Part shown: piece by piece, positions 1,181 through 19,879 of the stretch
How the letters are laid out: each line of letters begins with the position of its first letter
How positions within the stretch are numbered: position 1 is the stretch's first letter
NCBI GenBank assembly: GCA_036264095.1
Contig: DATARO010000080.1
Span: forward strand, 14,853 to 78,852
Source: Solirubrobacteraceae bacterium
Lineage (GTDB): Bacteria > Actinomycetota > Thermoleophilia > Solirubrobacterales > Solirubrobacteraceae
Direction: 5' to 3'
DNA: 64,000 nt
Position numbers and translations under genes: made by a program
Notes under the pieces: generated by a model
Databases searched by the model: none
Told to the model about the DNA's origin: nothing
The model's input: the letters and a program-made list of their open reading frames with translations, nothing else

Positions 1181-2250
1181 GCCGGCTGCTCCCTCACGCC
1201 CCACCACGCCGGCCCGACGCGGCCCGAGAGGTCGCCTGCCGCGGCGAGGTAGCCGTTGACGTCGATCATCAGGGGCAGCTGGGGCAGCGGGCGCCCGGCG
1301 GGTCCGAAGATCACGCGCGCGCCGTCCGCGGGGTCGAACGTCGAGTAGTGGCACGGGCACACGAGCGCGGGGCGCGGCTCGGTGACGGGGAAGCGCGGCT
1401 TGCGGTAGAGGTTGATCGCGCAGCCCGCGTGCGTGCAGATGCGGGAGTACGCGAGGATCCCGTACGGCGCCCACGACTCGCGGCCGCGCGGGAGCTTCAG
1501 CGCCGACGGCTGCAGGCGCACCACGACGAGCAGCGAGGAGATGTCCTCCTGGTCCCAGCCCTCCGCGAAGGCGCTGTAGAACGTCTCTTCTTCGATGGCG
1601 CTCGCGCGCAGCGGCTTGCCGTCGACGCCGACCAGCCTGCGGCCGCGCCGCCAGGGCGTCGCATCGAGCGGTCGGGTGTCCCACAGCGGGCCGAGCGAGA
1701 GCACCGGTGCGAGACCGGCGAGCCCGAGCGCGCCGCCGGCGGTGGAGGCGGCGCCGATCAGGAGCTTGCGGCGCGTGATCCCGCCCGCGCTGTCGCGGAC
1801 GAGCTGCGCGATCTCCTCCTGCGCCTCGGGGTCCTCCCGCGGGTAGTCCTCTGCGATCTCCTCGCTGGCGACCAGGCGCCGCGCAACCACGACGAGCGCG
1901 GCGGCGAGGAACAGCAGCGAGCCCGCGATGCAGGCGCCGAGCAGCTGGTTGGGCATCGAGCCCGGACTGAAGACGGCGTACACCACGACGAAGCCGGCAG
2001 CGAACAGCGCCGCGAGCAGCAGCAGCGCCGCGACGAGCAGCTCCGCGCTGCTGTCGGGCTCGGGGTGCGGCGCCACGTGCCCGGGCGGGGGCGGGCTCGA
2101 GACGTGGACCCGGTGCTCGGCATCCTCGCCGTCGCGCTCGCGGCGGCGGCGGCGGAGGCGTCCGTAGAAGATCGCCACGGCCGCGAGCAGCCATCCGATC
2201 GCGCGTCGGCCCCGGCCGGGCCGCGACTCCCCTGAGGGCGGGCGGCTCAC
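1177..2250 (-). CDS. qcrA: Rieske 2Fe-2S subunit of cytochrome bc1
   Basis: C-terminal part of ORF 1177..3039. Motifs CTHAGC and CPCHYSTF, N-terminal TM helices, internal TRRKLL. GTG at 2250 overlaps the qcrC stop. Confidence 0.93.
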   Translation of the reverse strand: MSRPPSGESRPGRGRRAIGWLLAAVAIFYGRLRRRRRERDGEDAEHRVHVSSPPPPGHVAPHPEPDSSAELLVAALLLLAALFAAGFVVVYAVFSPGSMPNQLLGACIAGSLLFLAAALVVVARRLVASEEIAEDYPREDPEAQEEIAQLVRDSAGGITRRKLLIGAASTAGGALGLAGLAPVLSLGPLWDTRPLDATPWRRGRRLVGVDGKPLRASAIEEETFYSAFAEGWDQEDISSLLVVVRLQPSALKLPRGRESWAPYGILAYSRICTHAGCAINLYRKPRFPVTEPRPALVCPCHYSTFDPADGARVIFGPAGRPLPQLPLMIDVNGYLAAAGDLSGRVGPAWWGVREQPA

Positions 2251-3065
2251 GAGCGCAGCCTCCGCGAGACGGCCAGGCAGGAGACGCCGAGCAGCAGCGC
2301 GGCGAGCCAGGCGACCATGCCCTCGGGGATCGGCCCGAGGTTCCCGATCGACCAGCCGCCGCGGTTGTCGGGCTTGTTCGTCGTGAGCACGTACCTGACG
2401 ATCGAGGCCAGCTGGGATTCGGAGATCTGGCTCGCCGGGAAGCGCGGCATCAGGTAGGGGCCGATGCGCACGGCCTCGGCGATCTCGCTCGCGTCGATCC
2501 CCTGCAGTGGCGGGACGCGGGCGCCCGTGACGTAGCCGCCGCGCCCGAGGCTCTGATGGCATCCGGCGCAGTCTTCGGTGAACAGCTGGAACCCGCGCGA
2601 GACGTTGCCCCGGCGGACTTCCGGGTGGAGGATCCCCGGCCCTTTGCCGAGCGACGCCACGAACGCCGTCATGGAGGCGATCTCGGTCGGCGTGAACTGC
2701 ACGGGATGGTTGGCCGGCTCGTCGTGGATGCCGGCGAGCGGCATGAAGCCGGTGCGCAGATAGAAGTCCGCCGCCAGCGCGCCGACCCCTTGCAGCGGCG
2801 GGCCGGCTCCGGGCACGACGCCGGCGCCGATGCGCGGGCGGCTGATCCCTTCGCCGGCGATCCCGTGGCAGCTCGCGCAGTTCGCGCTGAACAGCTGCCG
2901 GCCGAGCTCGAGCGACGGTGTGGACGGCTCGGACGAGGGCCGCACGATGCCGTTCTGGGAGGCGGCGAGCGCCGTCGTCACGCCGCCCGCCAGGCCGACG
3001 AGCGTCAGCACCGCGGCCGCGCGGGCGAGCCAGCTGCAAGCGGTCTGGCGGCTCGGCGCGGTCAT
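2247..3065 (-). CDS. qcrC: Diheme cytochrome c subunit of bc1
   Basis: Two CxxCH motifs (CASCH, CAGCH); C-terminal GPIPEG plus TM anchor. Confidence 0.93.
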   Translation of the reverse strand: MTAPSRQTACSWLARAAAVLTLVGLAGGVTTALAASQNGIVRPSSEPSTPSLELGRQLFSANCASCHGIAGEGISRPRIGAGVVPGAGPPLQGVGALAADFYLRTGFMPLAGIHDEPANHPVQFTPTEIASMTAFVASLGKGPGILHPEVRRGNVSRGFQLFTEDCAGCHQSLGRGGYVTGARVPPLQGIDASEIAEAVRIGPYLMPRFPASQISESQLASIVRYVLTTNKPDNRGGWSIGNLGPIPEGMVAWLAALLLGVSCLAVSRRLRS

Positions 3066-3475
3066 GACTGCCGGCAGAGCGTGAGCAGCGGGTGACCGAT
3101 CGCGACCATCGCGCAGATCACCGCTGGAAACGGATTGACGGTCAGCGCCACGGCCGAGAGGAAGTGGATGCGCCCGGTGGCGATGTCATCGGGCTCCTGG
3201 GTGCCCGGATCGGCGCGCGTGGCTCTGAAGACTGCGAGTGCGAGCAGCTCGGCGGCGACCCCGACGATGAACCCAGCTCCTCCGAGCGCCGCCGCGATCG
3301 CGTGCACCGGGAACTGGAAGCGGGCGTCCGGGGACTCACAGCGCGCGAGGCTGAACTGCATCGCGAACAGGAACTGCAGCGCCCACGCGGCGGGGCCGGC
3401 GAGGACGGCGAGCCACACCAACCGGCCCAGTCGCGACAGGCTCCGGCTCGCACGTGTCTGCACGGCGGGGCTCAT
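3062..3475 (-). CDS. Hypothetical membrane protein (about 3 TM), 137 aa, inside the respiratory operon
   Basis: MSPAVQTRAS...LCRQS. ATGA overlaps with both neighbours; hydrophobic segments. Confidence 0.75.
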   Translation of the reverse strand: MSPAVQTRASRSLSRLGRLVWLAVLAGPAAWALQFLFAMQFSLARCESPDARFQFPVHAIAAALGGAGFIVGVAAELLALAVFRATRADPGTQEPDDIATGRIHFLSAVALTVNPFPAVICAMVAIGHPLLTLCRQS

Positions 3476-4137
3476 AGGACCGGGGTCAGCTCGGTCAGCA
3501 GCACCGCGACCGCGATCACGTTGACGACGTGCCAGTAGAGCGCCACGCAGCGCACGCCGGTGACGCGGTAGTCCGAGAGCCCCGAGAGCGCCAGCCAGAA
3601 GAGCATCCCGAGGTCGAGCAGCACGCCGAGCAGCACGTGCGCGTGATGCAGCCCCAGCAGGGCGATGTACGCCGACGCGTAGGCGCTGCCCTGCGGCGGC
3701 AGCGAGTGGACCTGGTCGACCAGGTCGTGGAGCTGGTAGGCGAGGTATCCGGACTGCACGAACGCCGCCAGGCCGAGGAGCGCCATCGTCGCCGCCCTTC
3801 GCCCGGCGATCGCGCGGCGCGCGGCGAGCGCCACCGGGACCGACGTGGTGACCAGCACCGCCGTCAGGATCGAGGGGATGAGCGTTTCCGGGAGCCTGGC
3901 GCCGGCCGGGGGCCAGCGCGTCGCGCGGAAGTCGAGGTAGAAGTAGCTCGAGATCAACCCGGCGAACAGCATCGACTCGGCGCCGAGGAACAGCGCCATG
4001 CCCCACATCCCGCTCGGCAGTGCGCGCCGGCGCGAGGCGACGCGCCCGGCCGCGGCGGGGGTCGGGGCGAGCGACGGCCGCTGCGGGGCGAGCGAGAGCT
4101 CGCGACCGCCCGCCGCGTCGGGGTGGGCGCCGCTCAT
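3472..4137 (-). CDS. ctaE: Cytochrome c oxidase subunit III (short form)
   Basis: GMALFLGAESMLFAGLISSYF...SAYIALLGLHHAHV...YWHVV; ATG at 4137. Confidence 0.9.
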   Translation of the reverse strand: MSGAHPDAAGGRELSLAPQRPSLAPTPAAAGRVASRRRALPSGMWGMALFLGAESMLFAGLISSYFYLDFRATRWPPAGARLPETLIPSILTAVLVTTSVPVALAARRAIAGRRAATMALLGLAAFVQSGYLAYQLHDLVDQVHSLPPQGSAYASAYIALLGLHHAHVLLGVLLDLGMLFWLALSGLSDYRVTGVRCVALYWHVVNVIAVAVLLTELTPVL

Positions 4138-6062
4138 CGAGCGCCTCCCTCGGCGGCCGGCTTCTCGCCGCGCGGCGGGACGTGCCACGCGACCAGCAGC
4201 GCCGCCGCGAGCCCGCCGATTCCGGCCGCGATCAGGAAGTGCGCGAGCACCAGCGCGATGAAGCCGGCGAACACGACCGCTCCCACCAGCGCCGGCAGCG
4301 GAGAGCTCGGCGGCATCGCGAGCACCTCGTCGAGCAGGGCGTCCTGGACGGTGGTCCCCGGCGTCTCGTGCCCGCGCGCGAGCAGCCCCTGGCCGCGCTC
4401 GAGGCGGCGGCGATCGCGCTCGCGGTCCTCCTCGTCCCACATCGGGTAGGCGCTCGACACGGTCGGGATGACCGCGTAGTTGTAAGCCGGGGGTGGGGAG
4501 GACGTGGCCCACTCGAGCGTGTCGCCGCCCCATGGATCGGCCCCGGCGGGCGCGCCTTTGAAGAGGCTGACCGCGAGGTTGACGATCACCAGCAACAGGC
4601 CGGCGGCGAGCAGGTAGGCGCCGGCCGACTCCAGCGCGTTCAGCGTCGTCCAACCGCTCGCCGCCGTGTAGGTGTAGATGCGCCGCGGCATCCCTTCGAT
4701 GCCGGCGATGTGCATCGGGAAGAACGTGACGAGCGTGCCGATGAAGCTGAGCCAGAAGCTGAGCTTGCCGACCCCTTCGTGGTACATGCGGCCCGTGACC
4801 TTCGGGAACCAGTAGTAGAGGCCGCCGAGGATCGGGAACACGGCGCCGCCGAAGATCACGAAGTGGAAGTGGGCGACGATGTAGTAGCTCGCGTTCACCT
4901 GCTGGTCGAACGGGATCGCGGCCACCGTGACGCCCGACAGCCCGCCGATGATGAAGAACACGATGAAGCCGATGATCCACAGCAGCGGCGTCGTGAACTC
5001 GGGCTTTCCCGTCAGGATCGTCGTGATCCACGCGAACAGCTGGATCGCGCTCGGGATCACGATGATCAGGCTCGTCGCGGCGAAGTAGACCGTCACGAGC
5101 GTCGGCAGGCCGACCGCGAACATGTGGTGCGCCCACACCCCGAAGCCGAGGAACGCGACCAGCAGCTCCGCCAGCGCGACCATCGGGAACATCACCATCC
5201 GTCGGTGCACGAACGTCGGGATGATCGAGGTCGCGATCCCGAACGCGGGCAGGATGATGATGTAGACCTCGGGGTGGCCGAAGATCCAGAACAGGTTCTG
5301 CCACAGCAGCGGATCGCCTCCGAAGCCGGCGTCGTAGAAGTGGAAGCCGAGCTGCCGGTCGAGCTCGAGGAAGATCGTGGCGAGCGTCAGCGCCGGCAGC
5401 GCGAACACGAGCGAGAAGGCGGCGGCGAGGAACGCGTAGCAGAACAGCGGCATGCGATTCAGCGACATGCCGGGCGCGCGCAGCTTGAAGATCGTGACGA
5501 TGATGTTGATCGCGGTCGCAGTGCTGGCGATCCCGTTGAAGATCAGGCCGTAGCCGTAGAAGTCGATGTTGGTGCCGGGGTCGAACTGCTTTGACGCGAG
5601 CGGGACGTAGTCGAACCAGCCGGCGTTCGGCGCCTGGCCGGTGGCGAGCGCGACGTACAGGAACACGCCGGACCCGAGGAAGATCCAGAACGAGACAGCG
5701 TTCATGCGCGGGAAGGCCATGTCGCGCGCGCCGATCATCAGCGGCACGAGGTAGTTCCCGAACGCCCCCGTCGTCATCGGGATCACGACGAGGAAGATCA
5801 TCGTGATGCCGTGCATGGTGAAGATCTCGTCGTATGTCTCAGGCGAGAGCAGGTGCTGCTGCGGGCCGATCAGCTGCGTGCGGATCAACAGCGCCTCGAC
5901 TCCGCCGGCGGCGAAGAACGCCATCGAGGCGAACAGGTACATCAGCCCGATGCGCTTGTGATCGACCGTGGTGACCCAGCCGAACACGCCTTTGCGCTCC
6001 TCCCAGACGCGCTCGAGGAGCTCGACATGAGCGCGTGCCGGAGGTGAGAGGGTGCTCGCCAT
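4134..6062 (-). CDS. ctaD: Heme-copper oxidase subunit I (A-type GHPEVY), with C-terminal extra TM pair
   Basis: DHKRIG, FTMHG, DMAFPRMN, WIFGHPEVY, WAHHMF, AHFHFV, GMPRR; ATG at 6062. Confidence 0.97.
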   Translation of the reverse strand: MASTLSPPARAHVELLERVWEERKGVFGWVTTVDHKRIGLMYLFASMAFFAAGGVEALLIRTQLIGPQQHLLSPETYDEIFTMHGITMIFLVVIPMTTGAFGNYLVPLMIGARDMAFPRMNAVSFWIFLGSGVFLYVALATGQAPNAGWFDYVPLASKQFDPGTNIDFYGYGLIFNGIASTATAINIIVTIFKLRAPGMSLNRMPLFCYAFLAAAFSLVFALPALTLATIFLELDRQLGFHFYDAGFGGDPLLWQNLFWIFGHPEVYIIILPAFGIATSIIPTFVHRRMVMFPMVALAELLVAFLGFGVWAHHMFAVGLPTLVTVYFAATSLIIVIPSAIQLFAWITTILTGKPEFTTPLLWIIGFIVFFIIGGLSGVTVAAIPFDQQVNASYYIVAHFHFVIFGGAVFPILGGLYYWFPKVTGRMYHEGVGKLSFWLSFIGTLVTFFPMHIAGIEGMPRRIYTYTAASGWTTLNALESAGAYLLAAGLLLVIVNLAVSLFKGAPAGADPWGGDTLEWATSSPPPAYNYAVIPTVSSAYPMWDEEDRERDRRRLERGQGLLARGHETPGTTVQDALLDEVLAMPPSSPLPALVGAVVFAGFIALVLAHFLIAAGIGGLAAALLVAWHVPPRGEKPAAEGGAR

Positions 6063-6064
6063 CG

Positions 6065-7141
6065 TCAACGCATCTCGCCGAGGAAGGCAGCGACCTTCTT
6101 CGCCTGGGCGCCGCTCAGACCGAGGTCGGGCATGTGGTTCCCGGGCTTGATCGCCTGCGGGTTCTCGATCCAGGCTGCGAGCTCGGACGGCGTGTCGGGG
6201 ATCGTGAGCGCCGCGAGCGTCGAGCGCGTGGCGAGGTGCGTGAGGTCGGGCCCGACCGTTCCTTCGGCGCTCGTCCCGGCGAGCCGGTGGCATCCGCCGC
6301 ATCCCTTGGACATGAACAGCTGCTGCCCTTCGCGCTGTTCGCCGCTCGCCGGAGCGGCGGCCGGCCGCTCCATGTCGGCGAGCCATGCCTCGAACGACGC
6401 GCGCGGTTCCGCGATCACCGTGAAGCGCATGTACGAGTGCTGCAGCCCGCAGAATTCCGAGCACTGGCCGAGATAGGAGCCGGGGGAGGGGGCTTCGAGC
6501 AGGATCGCGTTGGTGCGCCCGGGGATCATGTCGATCTTGCGCGCGAGGCTCGGGACCCACAGGCTGTGGATGACGTCCGCCGTGGTCGCGTACAGGCGCA
6601 CGCGGGTCCCGGTCGGGATGTGGATTTCGTTGGCGCTGACGGCCGCGGTCCCCGGGTAGTGGATCTCCCACCACCACTGGTGGCCCTTCACTTCCACGGA
6701 CATGCTCGTCGAGCCCGCCGGGGGCGCCTCGCTGAAGCGCACGGCGTAGATGTCGCTCGCGCCGAAGAGCACCAGCAGCACGATCAGGGGCACGGCGATC
6801 CCGAACACGATCACCATCGCGCCGGCGAGGCTCTCGCGCTCGCCGACGAACGGCAGTCCGGCTCGCCCGCGCCGGACGTAGGCGAGCACCAGCAGCACGA
6901 CCGCGCCGGCGAAGACGACCCCCGCGGCGGCGAGCATCCACCACCACAGCACGGAGATCACGTGCGTCTGGTGGCTGTCCGAGCGCAGAATCGACTGCTG
7001 CCCGCCGCACCCGCTCAGAGCGGCGGCGGCGAGCAGGAGCAGAGCGAGCGCGCCGCGGCGCCGAGACCCTCCTCGCACGGGGCGCGCCTGCGGTCCGCCA
7101 CCAGCGACACCCTGCAGCCGCTCCTGCGAACCCGCGCGCAC
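6065..7141 (-). CDS. ctaC: Cytochrome c oxidase subunit II with fused cytochrome c (caa3 type), lipoprotein
   Basis: Lipobox LSGC; CuA ligands HSLW...CSEFCGLQHSYM; C-terminal CGGCH...MP. Confidence 0.95.
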   Translation of the reverse strand: MRAGSQERLQGVAGGGPQARPVRGGSRRRGALALLLLAAAALSGCGGQQSILRSDSHQTHVISVLWWWMLAAAGVVFAGAVVLLVLAYVRRGRAGLPFVGERESLAGAMVIVFGIAVPLIVLLVLFGASDIYAVRFSEAPPAGSTSMSVEVKGHQWWWEIHYPGTAAVSANEIHIPTGTRVRLYATTADVIHSLWVPSLARKIDMIPGRTNAILLEAPSPGSYLGQCSEFCGLQHSYMRFTVIAEPRASFEAWLADMERPAAAPASGEQREGQQLFMSKGCGGCHRLAGTSAEGTVGPDLTHLATRSTLAALTIPDTPSELAAWIENPQAIKPGNHMPDLGLSGAQAKKVAAFLGEMR

Positions 7142-7152
7142 ATAGGTCCGCC

Positions 7153-7176
7153 TACCCGGGGGTCATTCCGCCAAAC
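7153..7176 (-). promoter_or_regulatory. SigB/SigF-type promoter of the cta-qcr operon
   Basis: Minus strand GTTT-N15-GGGTA, ending 11 nt before GTG 7141. Confidence 0.75.
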
Positions 7177-7681
7177 GAGCGGGGATGTTCGCTCCGGTCG
7201 TGCCGGGCGGGAGCAGCAGGAACACGTCAGTTTCGATTCCATGGGTCGGGTCGCACGCGCTCGTCACGGAGCGCACTGACCACGTCAGGTGGCTTTGCAC
7301 CGCGGCGCGCAGCTCGCCGTGCAGGGCGCGCTGGATCGCGCGTCGCGCGAGCGCGACCTCCTGGACCGAGCCGGCTTCCACCAGCGTCTGCTGCCCGCGC
7401 GTCAAGATGCCCTCGAGCACGATCGTGAGAACGTCGTCCGCGAGCAGGCTCCGGGTCCTGGTCGGAGCGCGCCCGTGCGTGCGCTTGTAGATCGCCGCCA
7501 CCGAGCGTGAGAGCGCCGCGAGATCGGCGGCCTTCGGCGCCGCCGGCCTCGCCGGCGCGTCGCCGAGCCGTGCACGCCGCCGCCCCGGGCTGCGCCGCAC
7601 CCTGGCTGCGTCGCGAGCGACTTCCTGCACACGCCACTCGGCGGGCTCCGGTCCGCCGGGGTGGATGTTGTTGTCAGACAT
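7163..7681 (-). CDS. DUF2294 / MpsC-like protein
   Basis: AALSRSVAAIYKRTHGRAPTRTRSLLADDVLTIVLEGILT... resembles the family pattern. Confidence 0.7.
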   Translation of the reverse strand: MSDNNIHPGGPEPAEWRVQEVARDAARVRRSPGRRRARLGDAPARPAAPKAADLAALSRSVAAIYKRTHGRAPTRTRSLLADDVLTIVLEGILTRGQQTLVEAGSVQEVALARRAIQRALHGELRAAVQSHLTWSVRSVTSACDPTHGIETDVFLLLPPGTTGANIPARLAE

Positions 7682-8802
7682 CAGCGCTCATACCGTTCGG
7701 CGTCTCCTACTCGCAGCGAGAGTCCGAGCCCGGGCACCCCCGCGTCGGGCCAGAGCTTCCCTTCGCGCAGGACGGGCAAACCGTCGAACAGCAGCGACTC
7801 GATCCGCGCGTGGTCGTGGAAGTACTCCACGTGGGCGAGGGCAGGGATCGCGCTGCCCACATGGGCGTGGATCGACGGGCTGGTGTGTGCCGAGAGCGGA
7901 ACCGCGTTCGCCTCGCACAGCGCCGCCACCCTCAGCATCTGGGTCACGCCGCCGCAGCGGGTGACGTCGGCCTGCAGGACGTCGACGGCTCCCGCATCGA
8001 GCATGCGGCGGAAGTAGAAGAGGTCGTAGCCGTACTCGCCGGCGGCCACCGCCATCGGCGCGGGGACGCGGTCGCGTAGCAGGCGCAGGCCCTCCAGGTC
8101 ATCGGAGGAGACAGGCTCCTCGAACCATGTCGCGCCGGACTCCTCGACGAACGTGTGCGCGAGGCCGAGCGCCTGCTTGCGCTCATACGCGCCGTTGGCA
8201 TCGACGAACAGCTCGACATCCGGCCCGATCGCGTCTCGCGCGCGGCGGACGCGTTCGGGGTCGCGCCCCGGATCGGAGCCGACCTTCATCTTCACCCTCG
8301 CCATCCCGCCCTCGACCCAGGCGGCGAGCTGGTGCTCGAGGCGGGCGTCCGAGTAGGAGGTGAAGCCACCGCTGCCGTAGACCGGCACCCCGTCGTGCAC
8401 GCGCCCGAGAAGGCCGGACAGCGAGATGTTCAGCAGCCGCGCCTTCATGTCCCACAGCGCCGTATCGACCGCTGCGAGTGCGCTCGAGATCACGCCCGGG
8501 TAGCCGGCGTTGCGCACCGCCGCGCGCATCTTCTCCCAGGCGGCGCCCGGCGACGTCGCGTCGAGCCCCTGCACCACGCCCGCGAGCATCCCCTGGATCA
8601 CGTCCGCCGCGGCGGACGACGTGTACGAGAAGCCGATGCCGGTCTCGTCTCCGGCCGTCGCTTCGGCCAGCACGAGCGTCGTCGCATCCCATGCAAGCGT
8701 CCCGTCGGCCTCCGGGGCGTCGGTGGGGATCTCGAACACGCGCGCGCGCACGCGCTCCACGGCCGGCGCTCCGGTCGACGTGTCAACGGCCTGCGTGCTC
8801 AC
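7681..8802 (-). CDS. Mandelate racemase/muconate lactonizing enzyme family (enolase superfamily)
   Basis: VKMKVG, LFVDANG, WFEEP, AAGEY, LQADVTRCGG. Confidence 0.9.
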   Translation of the reverse strand: MSTQAVDTSTGAPAVERVRARVFEIPTDAPEADGTLAWDATTLVLAEATAGDETGIGFSYTSSAAADVIQGMLAGVVQGLDATSPGAAWEKMRAAVRNAGYPGVISSALAAVDTALWDMKARLLNISLSGLLGRVHDGVPVYGSGGFTSYSDARLEHQLAAWVEGGMARVKMKVGSDPGRDPERVRRARDAIGPDVELFVDANGAYERKQALGLAHTFVEESGATWFEEPVSSDDLEGLRLLRDRVPAPMAVAAGEYGYDLFYFRRMLDAGAVDVLQADVTRCGGVTQMLRVAALCEANAVPLSAHTSPSIHAHVGSAIPALAHVEYFHDHARIESLLFDGLPVLREGKLWPDAGVPGLGLSLRVGDAERYER

Positions 8803-8824
8803 CGCAGCACGGCTCCGTTACCGC

Positions 8825-9037
8825 TTACCGGCGCGTGCCCACGTAGCGGCTGTGCTGCTCGTTCTCGACCGCGACGTGCTCCGGTCGCTCCGGCGCATCG
8901 CGCCGGCCCTCGACCTTGTCGCGTTCGGGATGGAGCTGCCGGTTACGCAGCCCCGCGGCGATCGCATACACGCCGCCGCCGAGCACAGCCAGCACGATCA
9001 GGACCAGCAGGAGTATGAAGAAGCCTCCGATTTCCAC
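8825..9037 (-). CDS. Small single-TM protein (70 aa)
   Basis: MEIGGFFILLLVLIVLAVLGGGVY...; follows its own promoter motif. Confidence 0.75.
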   Translation of the reverse strand: MEIGGFFILLLVLIVLAVLGGGVYAIAAGLRNRQLHPERDKVEGRRDAPERPEHVAVENEQHSRYVGTRR

Positions 9038-9049
9038 TGCTTGGGCGCC

Positions 9050-9073
9050 TACCCGGGGCGTCCCTGCTCAAAC
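9050..9073 (-). promoter_or_regulatory. SigB/SigF-type promoter
   Basis: GTTT-N15-GGGTA, 12 nt before GTG 9037. Confidence 0.75.
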
Positions 9074-10891
9074 GGAGACCTGCGCCGGGGCCTCGGAGAG
9101 GGCGATCGCCGCCGCGACGTGAGAGAGGTGCGTGAGCGTCTGCGGGTAGTTTCCGAGCGGCTCGCGCGTGCGGGGGTCGATCTCCTCGGAGAACAGCCCG
9201 AGCGGGCTCGCAGCACGCATCGCGCCGTCGAAGACCTCGCGCGCCGCGGCCAGCCGGTCCTGGCGCGCGTAGCACTCGGCCAGCCAGAACGAGCACGCGA
9301 TGAACGCGCCCTCCTGGCCCGGGAGGTCGTCGTCGCGCCGGTAGCGGTACAGGAAGCCGTCGGCGTCGAGCTCCTCGCGGACCGCGTCGGCCGTACGGAC
9401 CATGCGCTCGTCCTCGAATGCGATGAAGCCGGCGACGGGCAGCAGCAGCAGCGCCGCGTCGAGCTCCGGCTCGTCGAAGCACTGCACGAAGATGCCGCGA
9501 TCGGCGTCATAGCCACGCTTGTCGATCGCCTGCTCGATCTCGCGCCGCGCCTTCTCCCAGCGGCGTCGCGGCGCGCTGCGTGAGCACTCCTCCGCCAGGC
9601 GCAGGCCCCGGTCCAGCGCAGCCCAGCAGCAGGCCTTGGAGTGGACGAAATGCCGCGGCTCGCCGCGCCACTCCCAGATCCCGCGGTCCGGTTCGCTCCA
9701 GCGTTCGGCAGCCGAATCGACGAGCTCCGCGAAGAAGCGCCACTCGTCGTCGGTCGGCGAGCGCCCGCGCCGGTGCCAGCGCCACGCGAGGTTGAGGATC
9801 TCGCCGTACGCGTCGAGCTGGACCTGGCGCGCCGCGTCGTTGCCGACGCGCACCTGGCGCGAGCCGCGGTAGCCGGCGAGCTCGATCTCTTCTTCTGGCA
9901 CGCGCCGCTCGCCGCCGATGCCGAACAGGATCTGCAGGTCCTCGGCGTGACCCGCCGAGCTGCGGACGATGAAGTGGCGGAAGCGTTCCGCCTCGCGCGC
10001 GCATCCGAGCTCGGCGAGCGCGTGCGCGGCCAGCGTCGAGTCGCGGATCCAGCTGTAGCGGTAGTCCCAGTTGCGTGCGCCTCCGAGGGTCTCGGGCAAG
10101 GAGGTGGTAGGCGCCGCCACGATCGCGCCCGTCGGCGCGTACGTGAGCGCCTTCAGCGTCAGCGCCGAGCGCACGAGCGCGCCGTCGTCGTCGAGGTCCG
10201 CCCCGACGCGTTCGCGCCAGCGTCGCCACCAGGCCGTCGTGTCTTCCAGCCGGGTGTCGATGTCCGCCGCCGTCGGCAGCTCCGGCGGTTCGTGCTCGAG
10301 CAGGTGCGGGCGCACGTAGCGGATCAGGAGCCGGGCGCGCTCGCCCGCGTGCAGCGTCCGGACCTCGGACAGCTGCTGGCCGTCGCTCTCGAGCTCGCAG
10401 TCGCCGGCGATCAGCAAGCCGTCGTCGCCCCCGATCGCGCTGAACGCCTGGGTGCCTTCCCGGCGCAGCCACGGGCGCACCGCTCCGTAGTCGAAGCGCG
10501 GCGCGACCGTGATCTCGACCTCGGCGGCGCCGCGTACGCACTCGATCACGCGCACCAGCTCGCGGTGCGGGTCGAGCGCGCCGCCGTCGTGCATCGCGAA
10601 GAAATCCAGCACGCGGATGGTCGCCTCGCGGCTCTCCAGCACGGTTTGCAGGATCAGCGTGTCCGGGACGTATGAGCTCGAGCCCGAGCCCGGGTCGGCG
10701 CCGCTCAGCAGCACCGAGCAGAAGCCGCCGCGCTCGGGGTCGAGCAGCCGCCCGAAGCAGCTTCCGCTGTCGAAGCGCGGCAGGCAGCACCAGTCGATCG
10801 ACGCGTCGCTGGAGACGAGCGCGGAGCTGTGGCAGTCGCCGATCAGGCCGTAGTCGCCGATCGAGGGCTGCTCGCCGGAAGGCTCGCTCAT
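9068..10891 (-). CDS. Glycoside hydrolase family 15 (trehalase/glucoamylase-like)
   Basis: IGDYGLIGDC, GAIVAAPTTSLPE, RNWDYRYSWIRD, GIWEWRG, GLFSEE...GNYPQTLTH; ATG at 10891. Confidence 0.93.
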   Translation of the reverse strand: MSEPSGEQPSIGDYGLIGDCHSSALVSSDASIDWCCLPRFDSGSCFGRLLDPERGGFCSVLLSGADPGSGSSSYVPDTLILQTVLESREATIRVLDFFAMHDGGALDPHRELVRVIECVRGAAEVEITVAPRFDYGAVRPWLRREGTQAFSAIGGDDGLLIAGDCELESDGQQLSEVRTLHAGERARLLIRYVRPHLLEHEPPELPTAADIDTRLEDTTAWWRRWRERVGADLDDDGALVRSALTLKALTYAPTGAIVAAPTTSLPETLGGARNWDYRYSWIRDSTLAAHALAELGCAREAERFRHFIVRSSAGHAEDLQILFGIGGERRVPEEEIELAGYRGSRQVRVGNDAARQVQLDAYGEILNLAWRWHRRGRSPTDDEWRFFAELVDSAAERWSEPDRGIWEWRGEPRHFVHSKACCWAALDRGLRLAEECSRSAPRRRWEKARREIEQAIDKRGYDADRGIFVQCFDEPELDAALLLLPVAGFIAFEDERMVRTADAVREELDADGFLYRYRRDDDLPGQEGAFIACSFWLAECYARQDRLAAAREVFDGAMRAASPLGLFSEEIDPRTREPLGNYPQTLTHLSHVAAAIALSEAPAQVSV

Positions 10892-16183: not shown

Positions 16184-17943
16184 GCGTTCCCGCCCCAGGG
16201 GCCTCGGGCGCCGATCTCGGAGCGATGCCCCTCCCCGACCCGCGCCTGCAGGCGATCGTCGTCGTCCCCGCCCGCGATGAGGCGCCGCGCATCGCGGCCT
16301 GCCTGCGCGCGCTCGCCGGCCAGGAGGGCGTCGCCCCCGGCAGCTACGAGGTGATCGTGGTCCTCGACGGCTGCCGCGACGGCACCCTGGATGTCGTTGC
16401 GGAGGCCGAGCGCGCCAACGCATCGCTCTCGGTCCACGCGATCACCCTGCCCGAGCCCGAGGGTGTCGGACGCGCAAGGCGCCTCGGTATGGACCTCGCC
16501 TACGCGCGGCTGATGCGGATCGGCGCCGCGGATGGCCTGATCGCCAGCACCGACGCCGACACGATCGTGGCCGATGACTGGCTCGCGGTCCAGCTGGCGC
16601 TGGCCGGCGCCGGGGCAGCGGCGATCGGCGGGCTGATCGAGCTCGAGCCGGATGAGCGCCGCGCGCTCGACCCGCGGGCGCTCGCAGCGCGCGAGCGCGA
16701 CATGGCGGCCCGCATCGCGCGCGCGATCGAGCAGGCCGGGGATCCCGCGGACGTCGAGCACGCGCACTTCTCCGGGGCGTCGCTTGCGTTGACGGCCGCT
16801 GCCTACAGGCGCTGCGGCGGCCTGCCCGTGCGGGCGGCGCTCGAGGATGAGGCGCTGGCCGAGGCGCTCACGCGGCAGGGCATCTCGATCCACCGCAGCC
16901 GCGGCGTCAGGGTGCGGACCTCGGCGCGCACGGACGGGCGTGCGCCCCGCGGTCTGGCCCAAGACCTCGCCCGCGCCGATTGGCGAGCGCGCCGCGCGTT
17001 CGATGCGAGCGAGTTCCCGCTCGAGCGGCTGCTCGCGGCCAAGCGCGACACGATCGCGCTGCTGCTGCCCGCGCGCGAAGTCGCCGAGACGATCGGGCCG
17101 ATCGCCGAAAGCGCCGTGCGCCTGAGGGACGCGGGTCTGCTCGACGACGTACTCGTGGTCGACGCTGCCTCCAAGGACGACACGGCGGCGATCGCGACGC
17201 GCGCCGGCCTGCCGGTGGTGCAGGAGAGCGAGCTGCTCAGCGAGTACGGCCCGGTGCAGGGTAAGGGGGACGCGATGTGGAGGGGGCTATCCGCCGTCGG
17301 CGGGGAGATCGTCGCGTTCGCCGACACCGACACGGAGGGCTTCCACGACGGCTTCATCCTCGGTCTCGTCGGCCCGCTGATCTGCGACCGCGGCATCGAG
17401 CTCGTCAAGGGCGCGTTCCGCCGCCCCTTCCGCAGCGGTGCGACCGTGGCCGCCGAAGGCGGAGGCCGCGTCACGGAGCTGATGGCGCGGCCACTGCTCA
17501 ATCTGCACGCGGTCGAGCTGGCGGTCTTCGCCCAACCGCTCGCGGGGGAGACCGCCGCGCGCCGCGAGCTGCTCGAGGGGATCCCGTTCAGCGCCGGCTA
17601 CGGCGTGGAGATCGCGATGCTGATCGATTGCTGGCGCCGGTGCGGGCTCGGCGCGCTCGCCGAGGTCGACCTCGGGGTGAGGCAGAACCGCCACCAATCC
17701 CTTCGCGACCTGTCGGCGATGGCCTACGCCGTGCTCGTCGCAGCCGAGACGCGCTTCCTCGGCGAGGGTTTCGCCGACAGGCACGCGTGCAGGTCTGTCG
17801 TCCTGCCGCCGCTCCCGGGCGGTGCCGGGGGGACGGAGAACCGACCGGTCACGGTCGAGGAACGCCCCCCGCTGGCGGAGCACCGCGCCCGCGCCGGCGG
17901 ATCCGTTTTGGGGGATCGGCCCAGGGTAGGGGCGGGACAATGA
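16180..17943 (+). CDS. Two-domain glycosyltransferase: GT2 fused to a glucosyl-3-phosphoglycerate synthase-like domain
   Basis: N-half VVVPARDE...STDADT...EDEA. C-half LLLPAREVAETI...GKGDAMW...FADTD...GGRVTELMARPLL...QPLAGE...GYGVEI. Confidence 0.85.
   Translation: MSVPAPGASGADLGAMPLPDPRLQAIVVVPARDEAPRIAACLRALAGQEGVAPGSYEVIVVLDGCRDGTLDVVAEAERANASLSVHAITLPEPEGVGRARRLGMDLAYARLMRIGAADGLIASTDADTIVADDWLAVQLALAGAGAAAIGGLIELEPDERRALDPRALAARERDMAARIARAIEQAGDPADVEHAHFSGASLALTAAAYRRCGGLPVRAALEDEALAEALTRQGISIHRSRGVRVRTSARTDGRAPRGLAQDLARADWRARRAFDASEFPLERLLAAKRDTIALLLPAREVAETIGPIAESAVRLRDAGLLDDVLVVDAASKDDTAAIATRAGLPVVQESELLSEYGPVQGKGDAMWRGLSAVGGEIVAFADTDTEGFHDGFILGLVGPLICDRGIELVKGAFRRPFRSGATVAAEGGGRVTELMARPLLNLHAVELAVFAQPLAGETAARRELLEGIPFSAGYGVEIAMLIDCWRRCGLGALAEVDLGVRQNRHQSLRDLSAMAYAVLVAAETRFLGEGFADRHACRSVVLPPLPGGAGGTENRPVTVEERPPLAEHRARAGGSVLGDRPRVGAGQ
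17905..17928 (+). promoter_or_regulatory. SigB/SigF-type promoter for the TPP-GMC operon
   Basis: GTTT-N15-GGGTA inside the 3' end of the GT gene. Confidence 0.7.
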
Positions 17944-18088
17944 GCACTGCGCAGAACGAGGCGCGTTGCCGTTCCTTCGGTCGAGCCCGCACCGCCCCCA
18001 CCGCGGCGCCCACCGGGCCGGCCAGGCTCACCCCGGCCGGCGGTCCCGATCGCTGGAGCGGCGCCCACCGCCACCGAAAGGGAGCCCC

Positions 18089-19879
18089 ATGAGCGAGACC
18101 GTAGCCGCCCACCTACTCGCACGACTCGCCAACGAGTGGGGGGTGAAGCGGATCTACGGATATCCCGGCGATGGCATCAACGGGATCATCGGCGCTCTCG
18201 GGCGCGCCGGGGACCGCCCCGAGTTCATCCAGGTGCGCCACGAGGAGATGGCCGCGTTCATGGCCTGCGCCCACGCGAAGTTCACGGGCGAGGCGGGCGT
18301 GTGCCTCGCGACCTCGGGCCCCGGAGCGATCCACCTGTTGAACGGGCTCTATGACGCGAAGCTCGACCACCAGCCGGTCGTCGCGATCGTCGGGCAGCAG
18401 GCGCGGCTCGGCCTCGGCGGCAACTACCAGCAGGAGGTCGACCTCACGACGCTCTTCAAGGACGTCGCGCACGAGTACGTGCAGATGGCGACCGAGGCGG
18501 GCCAGATCAGGCACCTGATCGATCGTGCGATGCGGATCGCCCTCTCGGAGCGCACCGTCACGTGCGTGATCGTCCCCAACGACCTGCAGATGGAACCGGC
18601 GGTCACCACCCCGCCGCATGCGCACGGGACGGTCCACTCGGGCCCGGGCTACGCGGCGCCCCGCGTGACGCCGTCCGATGACCAGCTGCAGCGCGCGGCA
18701 GAGATCCTGAACGCCGGGAAGAAGGTCGCGATGCTCGTCGGCGCCGGCGCCCTGCATGCCACCGACGAGGTGATCCAGGTCGCTGACGCGCTCGGGGCGG
18801 GCGTGGCCAAGGCGCTGCTCGGGAAGGCCGCGGTGCCCGACGACCTGCCGTTCGTGACCGGCTCGATCGGGCTGCTGGGCACGCGTCCGAGCTGGGACAT
18901 GATGCAGGACTGCGACACGCTGCTGATGGTCGGCTCGAGCTTCCCGTACTCGGAGTTCCTGCCGGAAGAGGGCCAGGCCCGCGGCGTGCAGATCGACCTC
19001 GACGGACGCATGCTCGGGATCCGCTACCCGATGGAGGTAAATCTCGTCGGCGACAGCGCGTTGACGCTGAAGGCGCTGCTGCCGATGCTCGAGCGCAAGG
19101 CCGATCGCGGCTGGCGCGAGAAGCTCGAAAAGCAGATCCACTCGTGGTGGGAGGTGATCGACCAGCGCGCGCACGAGCCGGCGAAGCCCGTCAACCCGCA
19201 GTTGATCTTCCACGAGCTCTCCAAGCGCCTGCCCGACCGCGCGATCCTCGCTTCCGACTCCGGTTCGGCCGCCAACTGGTACGCGCGCGACGTGCGGCTC
19301 CGCGCCGGCATGCACGCATCGCTATCGGGGACGCTCGCCACGATGGGCGCGGGCGTGCCCTACGCGATCGGTGCGAAGTTCGCCCACCCCGATCGGCCAG
19401 TGATCGCGCTCGTGGGCGACGGTGCGATGCAGATGAACGGGCTCGCCGAGCTGATCACTGTCGCCAAGTACCGCGAGCGCTGGAGTGACCAGCGCCTGAT
19501 CGTCGCCGTGCTCAACAACCGCGACCTCAACCAGGTCACCTGGGAGCAGCGCGCGATGTCCGGGGACCCGCGGTTCGCCGAGTCGCAGGCGTTGCCCGAC
19601 ATCCCATACGCGCGCTGGGCAGAGCTGATCGGCCTGAACGGCATCCGCACCGAAAATCCCGAGGAGATCGGGGAGTGCTGGGATCGAGCGCTCGCAGCCG
19701 ACCGGCCGACCGTGCTCGAGGTGGTGTGCGATCCCGAGGTCCCGCCGCTGCCGCCGCACATCACGATCGAGCAGGCCCGCTCGTTCGCGTCCGCCGTCGC
19801 CCACGGCGACCCCGCGCGTCGGCGGATGATCGCCCAGTCGATCCGGCAGATGCTGCCCGAGATCGTCCACGGCCGATGA
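18089..19879 (+). CDS. Thiamine pyrophosphate-requiring protein (pyruvate oxidase/PoxB-like)
   Basis: YGYPGDG, RHEEMAAF, ATSGPG, GDGAMQM...LNN; SD GAAAGGGA. Confidence 0.92.
   Translation: MSETVAAHLLARLANEWGVKRIYGYPGDGINGIIGALGRAGDRPEFIQVRHEEMAAFMACAHAKFTGEAGVCLATSGPGAIHLLNGLYDAKLDHQPVVAIVGQQARLGLGGNYQQEVDLTTLFKDVAHEYVQMATEAGQIRHLIDRAMRIALSERTVTCVIVPNDLQMEPAVTTPPHAHGTVHSGPGYAAPRVTPSDDQLQRAAEILNAGKKVAMLVGAGALHATDEVIQVADALGAGVAKALLGKAAVPDDLPFVTGSIGLLGTRPSWDMMQDCDTLLMVGSSFPYSEFLPEEGQARGVQIDLDGRMLGIRYPMEVNLVGDSALTLKALLPMLERKADRGWREKLEKQIHSWWEVIDQRAHEPAKPVNPQLIFHELSKRLPDRAILASDSGSAANWYARDVRLRAGMHASLSGTLATMGAGVPYAIGAKFAHPDRPVIALVGDGAMQMNGLAELITVAKYRERWSDQRLIVAVLNNRDLNQVTWEQRAMSGDPRFAESQALPDIPYARWAELIGLNGIRTENPEEIGECWDRALAADRPTVLEVVCDPEVPPLPPHITIEQARSFASAVAHGDPARRRMIAQSIRQMLPEIVHGR

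Follow-up and report, generated by a model that had tools for sequence, protein, structure and literature searches.

A caa3-type oxidase of soil Solirubrobacteraceae carries glutamine at the K-pathway lysine site and may use a converted K pathway

We analysed a window of 64,000 nucleotides from a Solirubrobacteraceae bacterium (GenBank assembly GCA_036264095.1, contig DATARO010000080.1, positions 14,853 to 78,852). The window has ~72% G+C, its contig stems from a soil metagenome, and its closest relatives are metagenome-assembled genomes (MAGs) of Solirubrobacteraceae and other Thermoleophilia. At its beginning lies a row of minus-strand genes for a caa3-type haem-copper oxidase in which glutamine takes the place of the K-pathway lysine. 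The row starts with ctaC (6065-7141, 358 aa, GTG start), which encodes subunit II and matches Pfam COX2 and Cytochrom_C as well as TIGR02866 above its cut-off. It is followed by ctaD (4134-6062, 642 aa, ATG start) for an A-family, A1-type subunit I (Pfam COX1, E = 2.8e-145), and by ctaE (3472-4137), whose start overlaps the ctaD stop (ATGA) and which encodes a five-helix subunit III covering positions 78-247 of the 258 in the Pfam COX3 profile. After a gene for a 137-aa multi-pass membrane protein (3062-3475) come the genes of a bc-type menaquinol:cytochrome c reductase: qcrC for the dihaem cytochrome c (2247-3065; two Cytochrom_C domains; NF050122 bc1_QcrC_actin 179.9 bits, below the cut-off of 200), qcrA for the Rieske iron-sulfur subunit (1177-2178; QcrA_N and Rieske domains; NF050121 201 bits, below the cut-off of 275) and qcrB for cytochrome b, truncated by the window start (1-1207; Cytochrom_B_N_2 and Cytochrome_B domains; NF050120 483.7 on the truncated protein versus a cut-off of 500). 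From ctaC to qcrB the genes are tightly packed, with overlaps of 1-4 nt or gaps of at most ~70 nt between neighbours. The same order is kept in the Thermoleophilia loci L001-L011, as far as each contig reaches, and in an Acidimicrobiia locus (L017) the oxidase is flanked by qcr genes.

An earlier note on this DNA had claimed that the oxidase lost the K pathway in subunits I and II, with a Gln codon at 5040-5042 in place of the Lys, while subunit I retained the six metal-ligand His, the cross-link Tyr, the D-pathway Asp/Asn and the Glu of GHPEVY. For subunit I, the gene call and the alignments confirm each of these residues. Using phmmer against PDB chains, the helix VIII motif IIVIPSAIQLFAW (5028-5066; this and all following coordinates in the row are on the minus strand) paired without gaps with AISIPTGVKIFNW of Bacillus subtilis aa3-600 and with LIAVPTGIKFFNW of Mycobacterium smegmatis aa3. 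Consequently, Lys362 (R. sphaeroides numbering) is Gln341 (CAG, 5040-5042) and Thr359 is Ser338 (5049-5051), and Ala344 stands at the site of Ser or Asn; the residue offset between CtaD and the R. sphaeroides protein is a constant 21 from His263 through His400. The ligands of haem a, haem a3 and CuB are all present (H84, H263, H312, H313, H398, H400). Helix VI carries GHPEVY (residues 262-267, 5262-5279) with the CuB ligand His263, the D-pathway Glu265 and the cross-link Tyr267, and further along, by alignment, Thr278 (5229-5231) as the equivalent of R. sphaeroides S299. The D-pathway entrance reads DMAFPRMN (5700-5723, Asp114 and Asn121, placed by alignment), and the R. sphaeroides residues D132, N121, N139, S142, S201, N207 and Y33 are all kept as D114, N103, N121, S124, S180, N186 and Y42; each is conserved in 12/12 loci of the Thermoleophilia branch, except S180 (11/12). 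The equivalents of H300 and S365 are Ser279 and Ala344. CtaD matched A-type oxidases in the PDB with E = 1e-140 to 1e-104 and is A-family by descent on these values and on TIGR02891, but the hallmark of the K pathway, a Lys in helix VIII together with an entry Glu in subunit II, is replaced by Gln341 and by Ile111 of subunit II, so we class it as a variant and not as a typical member. It clears the equivalog model TIGR02891 by only 6 bits (676.5 versus 670.75). The Mg/Mn-site ligands H411/D412 (R. sphaeroides) are Asn390-Ala391 in CtaD (VNASYY, 4890-4895). This Asn-Ala pair was found in 36 of the 120 nearest relatives, the rest having HD, ED or TD, and the Asp is otherwise nearly universal (55/59 in the Gln-type clade described below, 105/121 in Lys-type sequences).

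In subunit II, the second transmembrane (TM) segment reads MVIVFGIAVP (6788-6817). Two alignments, phmmer against subunit II of Thermus thermophilus caa3 (2yev_B) and MAFFT of 71 loci, both anchor on the conserved Pro of this helix and pair the entry Glu of LEVVWTLIP (E101-II in R. sphaeroides, E78-II in P. denitrificans, E62-II in bovine numbering) with Ile111 (6809-6811), between Val110 and Val112. The absence of the entry Glu is thus established as the earlier note had it, and the sole correction is that its exact counterpart is Ile. CtaC is otherwise complete. Along with a lipobox (LSGC) it has a pair of TM helices, a cupredoxin domain for CuA and, at the C-terminus, a cytochrome c domain, and motifs and alignment between 6287 and 6568 placed the CuA ligands HSLWVP (6551-6568) and CSEFCGLQHSYM (6428-6463) and the haem c site CGGCH (6287-6301). 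With the CuA ligands and the haem c domain intact, and with 2yev_B as its best PDB match (E = 5.7e-50), the enzyme is of caa3 type. The O2-reducing centre, CuA and the fused haem c are canonical, and in this branch the D pathway is so in its entirety. The best PDB matches of subunit I had brought up a quinol oxidase identity, which the intact CuA and haem c rule out; with both present, the electron donor is cytochrome c and not quinol. CtaC begins (7007-7141) with a long leader rich in Arg (SRRRGALAL), which looks like a twin-arginine signal and precedes the lipobox.

The exchange is not confined to this genome. IP-S-x-x-Q together with GHPEVY was found in 120/120 of the nearest clusters at 90% identity, which are 73-86% identical to the query and stem from soil metagenomes and MAGs of Solirubrobacteraceae, while Lys was present in 121/121 Lys-type comparison sequences, so the Gln is neither chance nor a sequencing error. 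Among the best 150 representatives at 50% identity (of 1.84 billion proteins) the site held Gln in 48 and Lys in 69, the rest having L/A/V/I/H/M, fractions which describe the neighbourhood of the query and not oxidases overall. In a neighbour-joining tree of 192 sequences, calculated without bootstrap, 46 Gln-type sequences and 13 derived variants formed one clade of 59 with no Lys-type member, which bears out the claim of a distinct oxidase clade. The clade covers several phyla and dozens of 50%-identity clusters, and the tree points to a large Gln-type clade of probably single origin within the A family. The subunit II Glu was missing in 21/21 loci without the Lys and present ([LIV]E..W[TF]) in 50/50 Lys-type loci (Fisher p = 1.8e-18), although, given the tree topology, this co-variation of the two subunits counts as essentially one evolutionary event. 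The expectation that IPSxxQ homologues co-vary with loss of the subunit II Glu (21/21 versus 0/50 loci without it) therefore held.

Among 80 loci from species-representative genomes, Gln-type genes occurred in Thermoleophilia, Acidimicrobiia, Alphaproteobacteria (Mesorhizobium, Microvirga), Terriglobia, Gemmatimonadaceae and Anaerolineae. Fused I+III genes of the Gln type, checked in sequence, lie on plasmids of Martelella and Agrobacterium fabrum, and homologues of 66-84% identity on plasmids of Ensifer/Sinorhizobium, Tistrella, Shinella, Aminobacter and Sphingobium. Another Solirubrobacterales MAG (L059) has a Lys-type oxidase gene. The plasmid proteins are annotated simply as cytochrome c oxidase subunit I. 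Public sources likewise give CtaD and all its relatives an ordinary name, either cytochrome c oxidase subunit I or I+III, with 'cbb3-type' for some fragments, so that the Gln variant is invisible in annotation.

We then compared Gln-type with Lys-type sequences column by column. In the Thermoleophilia branch, the only new buried charge is Glu299 (GAG, 5166-5168) in helix VII (VALAELLVAF), at the equivalent of bovine M277 and R. sphaeroides residue 320; the same comparison gave no new Lys, Arg or His that could replace the lost base. Glu299 is invariant in this branch (12/12 loci and 40/40 aligned relatives, VALAE[LI]LVAF), and the position is never acidic in the 121 Lys-type sequences, which have M/T/S/I/G. 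A further acidic residue, E233, was discarded as channel charge because it lies on the P side, outside the channel. Of the branch-specific invariant positions, 11 of 36 fall in residues 277-344, that is in helices VI-VIII. Solved structures show that these three helices form the K pathway, that the Lys lies in close contact with helix VII, and that the entrance lies between helix VII and helix II of subunit II (PMC9335260). Helix VII of Lys-type sequences has a conserved stripe (291, 295, 298/299, 302, 306, 309/310, 313) that takes in position 299 together with the CuB ligand His313, and we infer from this periodicity that Glu299 faces the cavity ~four helical turns (~20 Å) below CuB. An AlphaFold2 model of CtaD, made from a 40-sequence alignment, had a mean pLDDT of 61 with helix VI unformed and served solely to describe the C-terminal hairpin and to match the fold. 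The polar residues along the cavity are also retained: Tyr267, Thr278, Ser338 and Gln341 stay polar and conserved (S/T/N at 338, S/T at 278), and the Gln itself is strictly conserved, in all 120 nearest clusters and in 46 of the 59 clade members. Of the claim that the K pathway is lost, what stands is that both ionisable residues are gone; the conserved Gln341, the retention of Ser338, Thr278 and Tyr267 and, in the Thermoleophilia branch, the gain of Glu299 do not fit with it. Glu299 comes close to an equivalent ionisable residue in the channel, as sought by alignment, provided that the periodicity of helix VII places it correctly. We therefore prefer to read the K pathway as apparently converted, not erased.

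Other parts of the Gln-type clade differ. In several subclades the region of the D channel is changed, with N121 replaced by Ile or Val, N207 by Glu and D132 by Asn or Glu (NIAFPRLN, ELPFPRLA), and with additional Glu at query positions 98 and 177 (proteins P0004, P0008, P0010-P0012, P0016 and others; loci L015, L016, L019, L020, L028, L082 at 6998-9517 and L084 at 4399-6312). In one Gln-type group helix VIII also contains a Glu (AASEAVAIPTGVQ). The Thermoleophilia enzymes have a sister branch with GHPWVY, where Trp stands for the D-pathway Glu286, with mostly Ala at the Lys site and again no subunit II Glu (loci L012, L014, L024 and L038, 8001-9900 each; proteins P0001, P0013, P0030 and P0064). 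It is found in Alphaproteobacteria, Paraburkholderia, Castellaniella and Gemmatimonadaceae MAGs. By alignment, this branch appears to lack the key residue of either canonical proton pathway, yet to keep all metal ligands and the Tyr.

Concerted loss of the two K-pathway residues, from which the earlier note had inferred a distinct oxidase clade, is an already known phenomenon; that the changes in subunits I and II go together stands. Degli Esposti et al. described joint loss of K354 and COX2 E78 in aa3 oxidases of acidophilic iron oxidisers (rus operon, Acidithiobacillus/Acidiferrobacter), Thioclava, Acidimicrobiia, Chloroflexi and acidophilic Firmicutes, and reasoned that an archaeal A-family ancestor would require seven independent K-channel losses (bioRxiv 10.1101/2020.03.01.968255; Front Microbiol 2021, PMC8239418). 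Their survey left out long-branch COX1-3 fusions, and its Solirubrobacterales entries are Lys-type. The enzymes they describe share with ours the non-ionisable residues at both sites, HPEVY and the D channel. However, their Lys site is hydrophobic (I/L/V/F/M/A, with no Gln in the table), and they have one or two extra N-terminal TM helices, whereas the window CtaD has none and only ~35 residues before helix I. In our data, 12 Lys-less A-family sequences resembling these published clades lay outside the Gln-type clade (neighbour-joining, again without bootstrap). They have L/I/M/V at the Lys site, Phe at T359 (position 338) and Ala, Leu or Met at S299 (position 278). In the literature that we searched, there was neither a natural Lys-to-Gln A-family oxidase nor data on K362Q. 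What appears to be new here is therefore the Gln at the Lys site, the joint loss as such being known from other A-family clades. We also considered coxMNOP of rhizobia and Pseudomonas as a characterised relative and rejected it: the survey lists subtype a-III (two COX3) with a K channel, and the KF707 paper is silent on proton channels.

A working precedent for an uncharged relay exists outside the A family. In B-family oxidases such as T. thermophilus ba3, the K analogue has no Lys and is built of Ser, Thr and Tyr hydroxyls and water (summarised in PMC11214002). The likeness is mechanistic only, since B-family enzymes have no D pathway and keep the entrance Glu of subunit II, while the window enzyme keeps the D pathway, lacks the Glu and is A-family by sequence.

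We lean towards the reading that a complete caa3-type oxidase is kept by selection, with its K pathway rebuilt as an uncharged relay and Glu299 as new protonatable group, and regard this as close to an even call, leaning slightly to doubt. The enzyme would then form the terminal part of a chain from menaquinol through the bc complex and caa3 to O2, probably within a III-IV supercomplex such as other Actinobacteria have. Pumped protons and those of the oxidative phase would enter by the D pathway. The protons otherwise delivered by Lys362 would pass through the same cavity along a hydrogen-bonded, uncharged relay of Tyr267, Ser338, Gln341, Thr278 and water, and in the Thermoleophilia lineage Glu299 might serve as the new protonatable group or entry point that replaces both Lys362 and Glu101 of subunit II. 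Soil metatranscriptome contigs map on ctaC-ctaD including the Gln region, although their peaks track generic haem-copper oxidase motifs of mixed organisms, which makes them weak evidence of expression. Several points weigh against this reading. A Gln is unable to carry a proton, and exchange of the Lys for Gln or Met abolishes oxidase turnover in canonical bo3 and aa3 enzymes. At its entrance the channel has gained in hydrophobicity (Ala344, Ser279, Ile111 of subunit II), and the proximity of Glu299 and Gln341 is suggested by helix periodicity and published architecture, the AlphaFold2 model being poor. Furthermore, the members of the clade are known from sequence alone, and in other Gln-type subclades the site of Glu299 is L/A/I/V. 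Glu299 can therefore not be the general solution for the clade. Indeed, no single compensating residue exists across it, because other subclades changed the D-channel region instead.

Alternatively, the K pathway could be dead and the enzyme a D-only A-type oxidase, in which all chemical and pumped protons take the D pathway and Gln341 and Glu299 are structural only. Acidophilic iron oxidisers have Lys-less oxidases for which D-only proton uptake has been put forward, and surveys report several independent joint losses of K354 and E78 of subunit II with the D channel kept (bioRxiv 10.1101/2020.03.01.968255; PMC8239418). In our enzyme the ionisable K362 and E101-II as well as the polar entrance residues (the equivalents of H300 and S365) are all gone, the D pathway is wholly canonical in this branch, and the acidic residue in helix VII is missing from other Gln-type subclades, all of which would fit. 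A dead channel, however, should drift towards hydrophobic residues, which is what other Lys-less clades show (I/L/V/F/M at the Lys site, F at T359), while Gln, Ser338 and Thr278 are invariant here, and an invariant buried Glu is hard to account for as purely structural. Moreover, other Gln-type subclades have degraded canonical D-pathway residues (N121 to I/V, D132 to N/E), so that D-only uptake cannot hold across the clade. For the window enzyme we consider it unlikely, if still a serious candidate.

The promoter region bears on a third explanation, a role in stress. SigB/SigF-type promoters follow the consensus GTTT at -35, a spacer of 15-16 nt and GGGTA at -10. A motif of this type, GTTT-N15-GGGTA, lies at 7153-7176 on the minus strand and ends ~10 nt before the GTG of ctaC. 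It matched 3 times in the window versus 0.03 expected, the other copies being at 9050-9073 (minus), ahead of a 70-aa open reading frame, an MR_MLE gene and MpsC, and at 17905-17928 (plus), ahead of a gene similar to thiamine pyrophosphate-dependent pyruvate oxidases (17966-19879). The motif is also found directly upstream of ctaC in the related loci L004, L008, L009 and L010. Transcription of ctaC thus probably starts at a SigB/SigF-like promoter immediately upstream, where we infer the sigma factor from the motif, and the three copies point to a small regulon under an alternative sigma factor. Since the -10-like element is only ~10 nt upstream of the start, the transcript would have little or no leader, except if translation in fact begins at a codon further downstream. 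A scan for sigma-70 promoters upstream of ctaC gave no match, as expected at this GC content, and the two terminator-like sites are on the opposite strand. The stress-promoter control assumed by the earlier note thus gains sequence support. The stress-island context that it also assumed did not survive comparison: the MpsC-domain gene upstream of ctaC (7163-7681, minus) is absent from related loci, its neighbours are not syntenic in relatives either, and we rejected a conserved 'stress island'.

The earlier note had inferred from the concerted loss that the enzyme might scavenge peroxide, a role that it saw as fitting the stress-promoter control. The oxidase would then be a stress-induced, quinol- or cytochrome c-driven peroxidase with little O2 turnover, by analogy with K362M mutants. 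The premise is in the literature: PMC7601700, citing Vygodina 1998, states that K362M loses oxidase and keeps peroxidase activity, and PMC9961948 likewise has K-pathway mutants lose the one and retain the other. The SigB/SigF-like motif and the Dps-like ferritin and GH15 trehalase-like genes found near the oxidase in the window would agree with such a role, and peroxidase activity as such is compatible with the sequence. However, we found no peroxide-specific feature in it, and the island genes, including MpsC, are not conserved. The clade is old and widely distributed, and many of the contexts in which it is found have no stress genes. The linkage of the oxidase with qcrCAB in one operon throughout the Thermoleophilia branch fits a main respiratory route, and both subunit III and a complete D pathway for pumping have been kept, which together argues for a respiratory oxidase and against a mere peroxide scavenger. 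We therefore regard a peroxidase role as very improbable. A decaying or non-functional paralogue with Lys-to-Gln as neutral lesion, which the inactivity of canonical enzymes substituted at the Lys might suggest (for K362M, PMC7601700 citing Vygodina 1998), has a negligible probability and is effectively refuted by the conservation data, namely intact and tightly coupled reading frames, ~300 invariant columns over 40 relatives that are 72-85% identical to the window protein, conservation of every cofactor ligand and a clade of several phyla and dozens of 50%-identity clusters.

Returning to the reading of a converted K pathway, its extension to the whole clade is a proposal that we make more hesitantly and consider possible rather than probable. 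The Gln-type clade would be a distinct A-type subfamily that reduces O2 without a protonatable base in the K pathway, with an acid-based K pathway (Glu299) in soil Thermoleophilia and sister branches that have rewired the D pathway (N207 to Glu, extra Glu, D132 to Asn) or lost both E286 and K362 (GHPWVY). If this were true, the Lys-gated reductive half-cycle, which is taken as universal for A-type oxidases, would be only one of several solutions, and Gln-type enzymes may have a different H+/e- ratio, bind O2 with a different affinity or respond differently to the membrane potential. Lys362 is among the most studied residues in bioenergetics and is treated as indispensable for the reduction of haem a3-CuB in A-type oxidases, and it stands at the centre of models for gating and charge compensation. 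A large natural Gln clade that is abundant in soil Solirubrobacteraceae shows that the requirement for the Lys can be bypassed. Because the clade also reaches culturable rhizobia and occurs on plasmids of the tractable Agrobacterium, Ensifer and Martelella, the need for the Lys can be tested experimentally. In addition, automated annotation as plain 'cytochrome c oxidase subunit I' means that metabolic inferences on the efficiency of proton pumping in soil Actinomycetota may be off.

Compared with canonical A1-type caa3/aa3 oxidases (R. sphaeroides, P. denitrificans, B. subtilis caa3, T. thermophilus caa3, M. smegmatis aa3), subunits I, II and III are 35-42% identical. The six His, the cross-link Tyr, the GHPEVY Glu, the D-pathway residues and CuA are shared, as is, with the caa3 enzymes, the fused cytochrome c. 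The window enzyme differs by Lys362 to Gln, Thr359 to Ser, Ser365 to Ala, Ser at the H300 equivalent, Glu101 of subunit II to Ile, the new Glu299 and H411/D412 to Asn/Ala. The gene set resembles the actinobacterial bcc-aa3 supercomplex of M. smegmatis, M. tuberculosis and Corynebacterium glutamicum (CtaCDEF and QcrCAB) in its homologues of QcrC (dihaem), QcrA and QcrB, its five-helix CtaE and the proximity of ctaE to qcrCAB. Accordingly, the best NCBIfam matches of the qcr and cta genes are the actinobacterial bc1 and aa3 models, the qcr scores being below the curated cut-offs. Unlike in these systems, all seven genes form one operon, subunit II has its own cytochrome c domain, subunit I has a two-helix C-terminal extension and the oxidase is Gln-type.

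Likeness to quinol oxidases is seen in both sequence and fold, with B. subtilis aa3-600 QoxB as best sequence match (E = 2e-140) and Escherichia coli bo3 CyoB as best Foldseek match (TM-score 0.77 over 637 columns). Shared with bo3 and aa3-600 are a subunit I with two extra C-terminal helices and a five-helix subunit III; those enzymes, however, have the Lys and the subunit II Glu but no CuA, whereas ours has CuA and haem c. The C-terminal extension of CtaD (aa 545-642, 4137-4430) ends in a two-helix hairpin (helices 589-605 and 609-626 in the low-confidence AlphaFold2 model), which corresponds to helices 1 and 2 of a 7-TM subunit III, or to TM13-14 in subunit I of a quinol oxidase. CtaE has QoxC, CyoC and actinobacterial CtaE as its best PDB matches, and in close relatives of 824 aa the CtaD extension is fused to CtaE in one reading frame. 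The hairpin and the five-helix CtaE thus equal a split I+III fusion. The 137-aa membrane protein between ctaE and qcrC had no Pfam or NCBIfam match. Its homologues are found at the same position in L001, L002, L003 and L008, and it may be a candidate subunit IV or a new small subunit of the oxidase or supercomplex.

Further observations concern the surroundings of Gln-type operons. On the source contig, just past qcrB and beyond the window start, lies an Mrp/Mnh-type multisubunit cation/proton antiporter operon (L081, 17414-21929), with two fragments of luciferase-like monooxygenases between it and qcrB. The Agrobacterium fabrum plasmid pAt12D13b carries two different Gln-type oxidase operons side by side (L084, 387-8488; L082, 6141-11572), one of which is preceded in the same orientation by an FdhF/YdeP-family molybdoenzyme and a cytochrome c. 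Similarly, a molybdopterin oxidoreductase adjoins the Gln-type oxidase in the Mesorhizobium locus L020 (6859-14017), and these molybdoenzyme neighbours hint at a dedicated electron-donor module.

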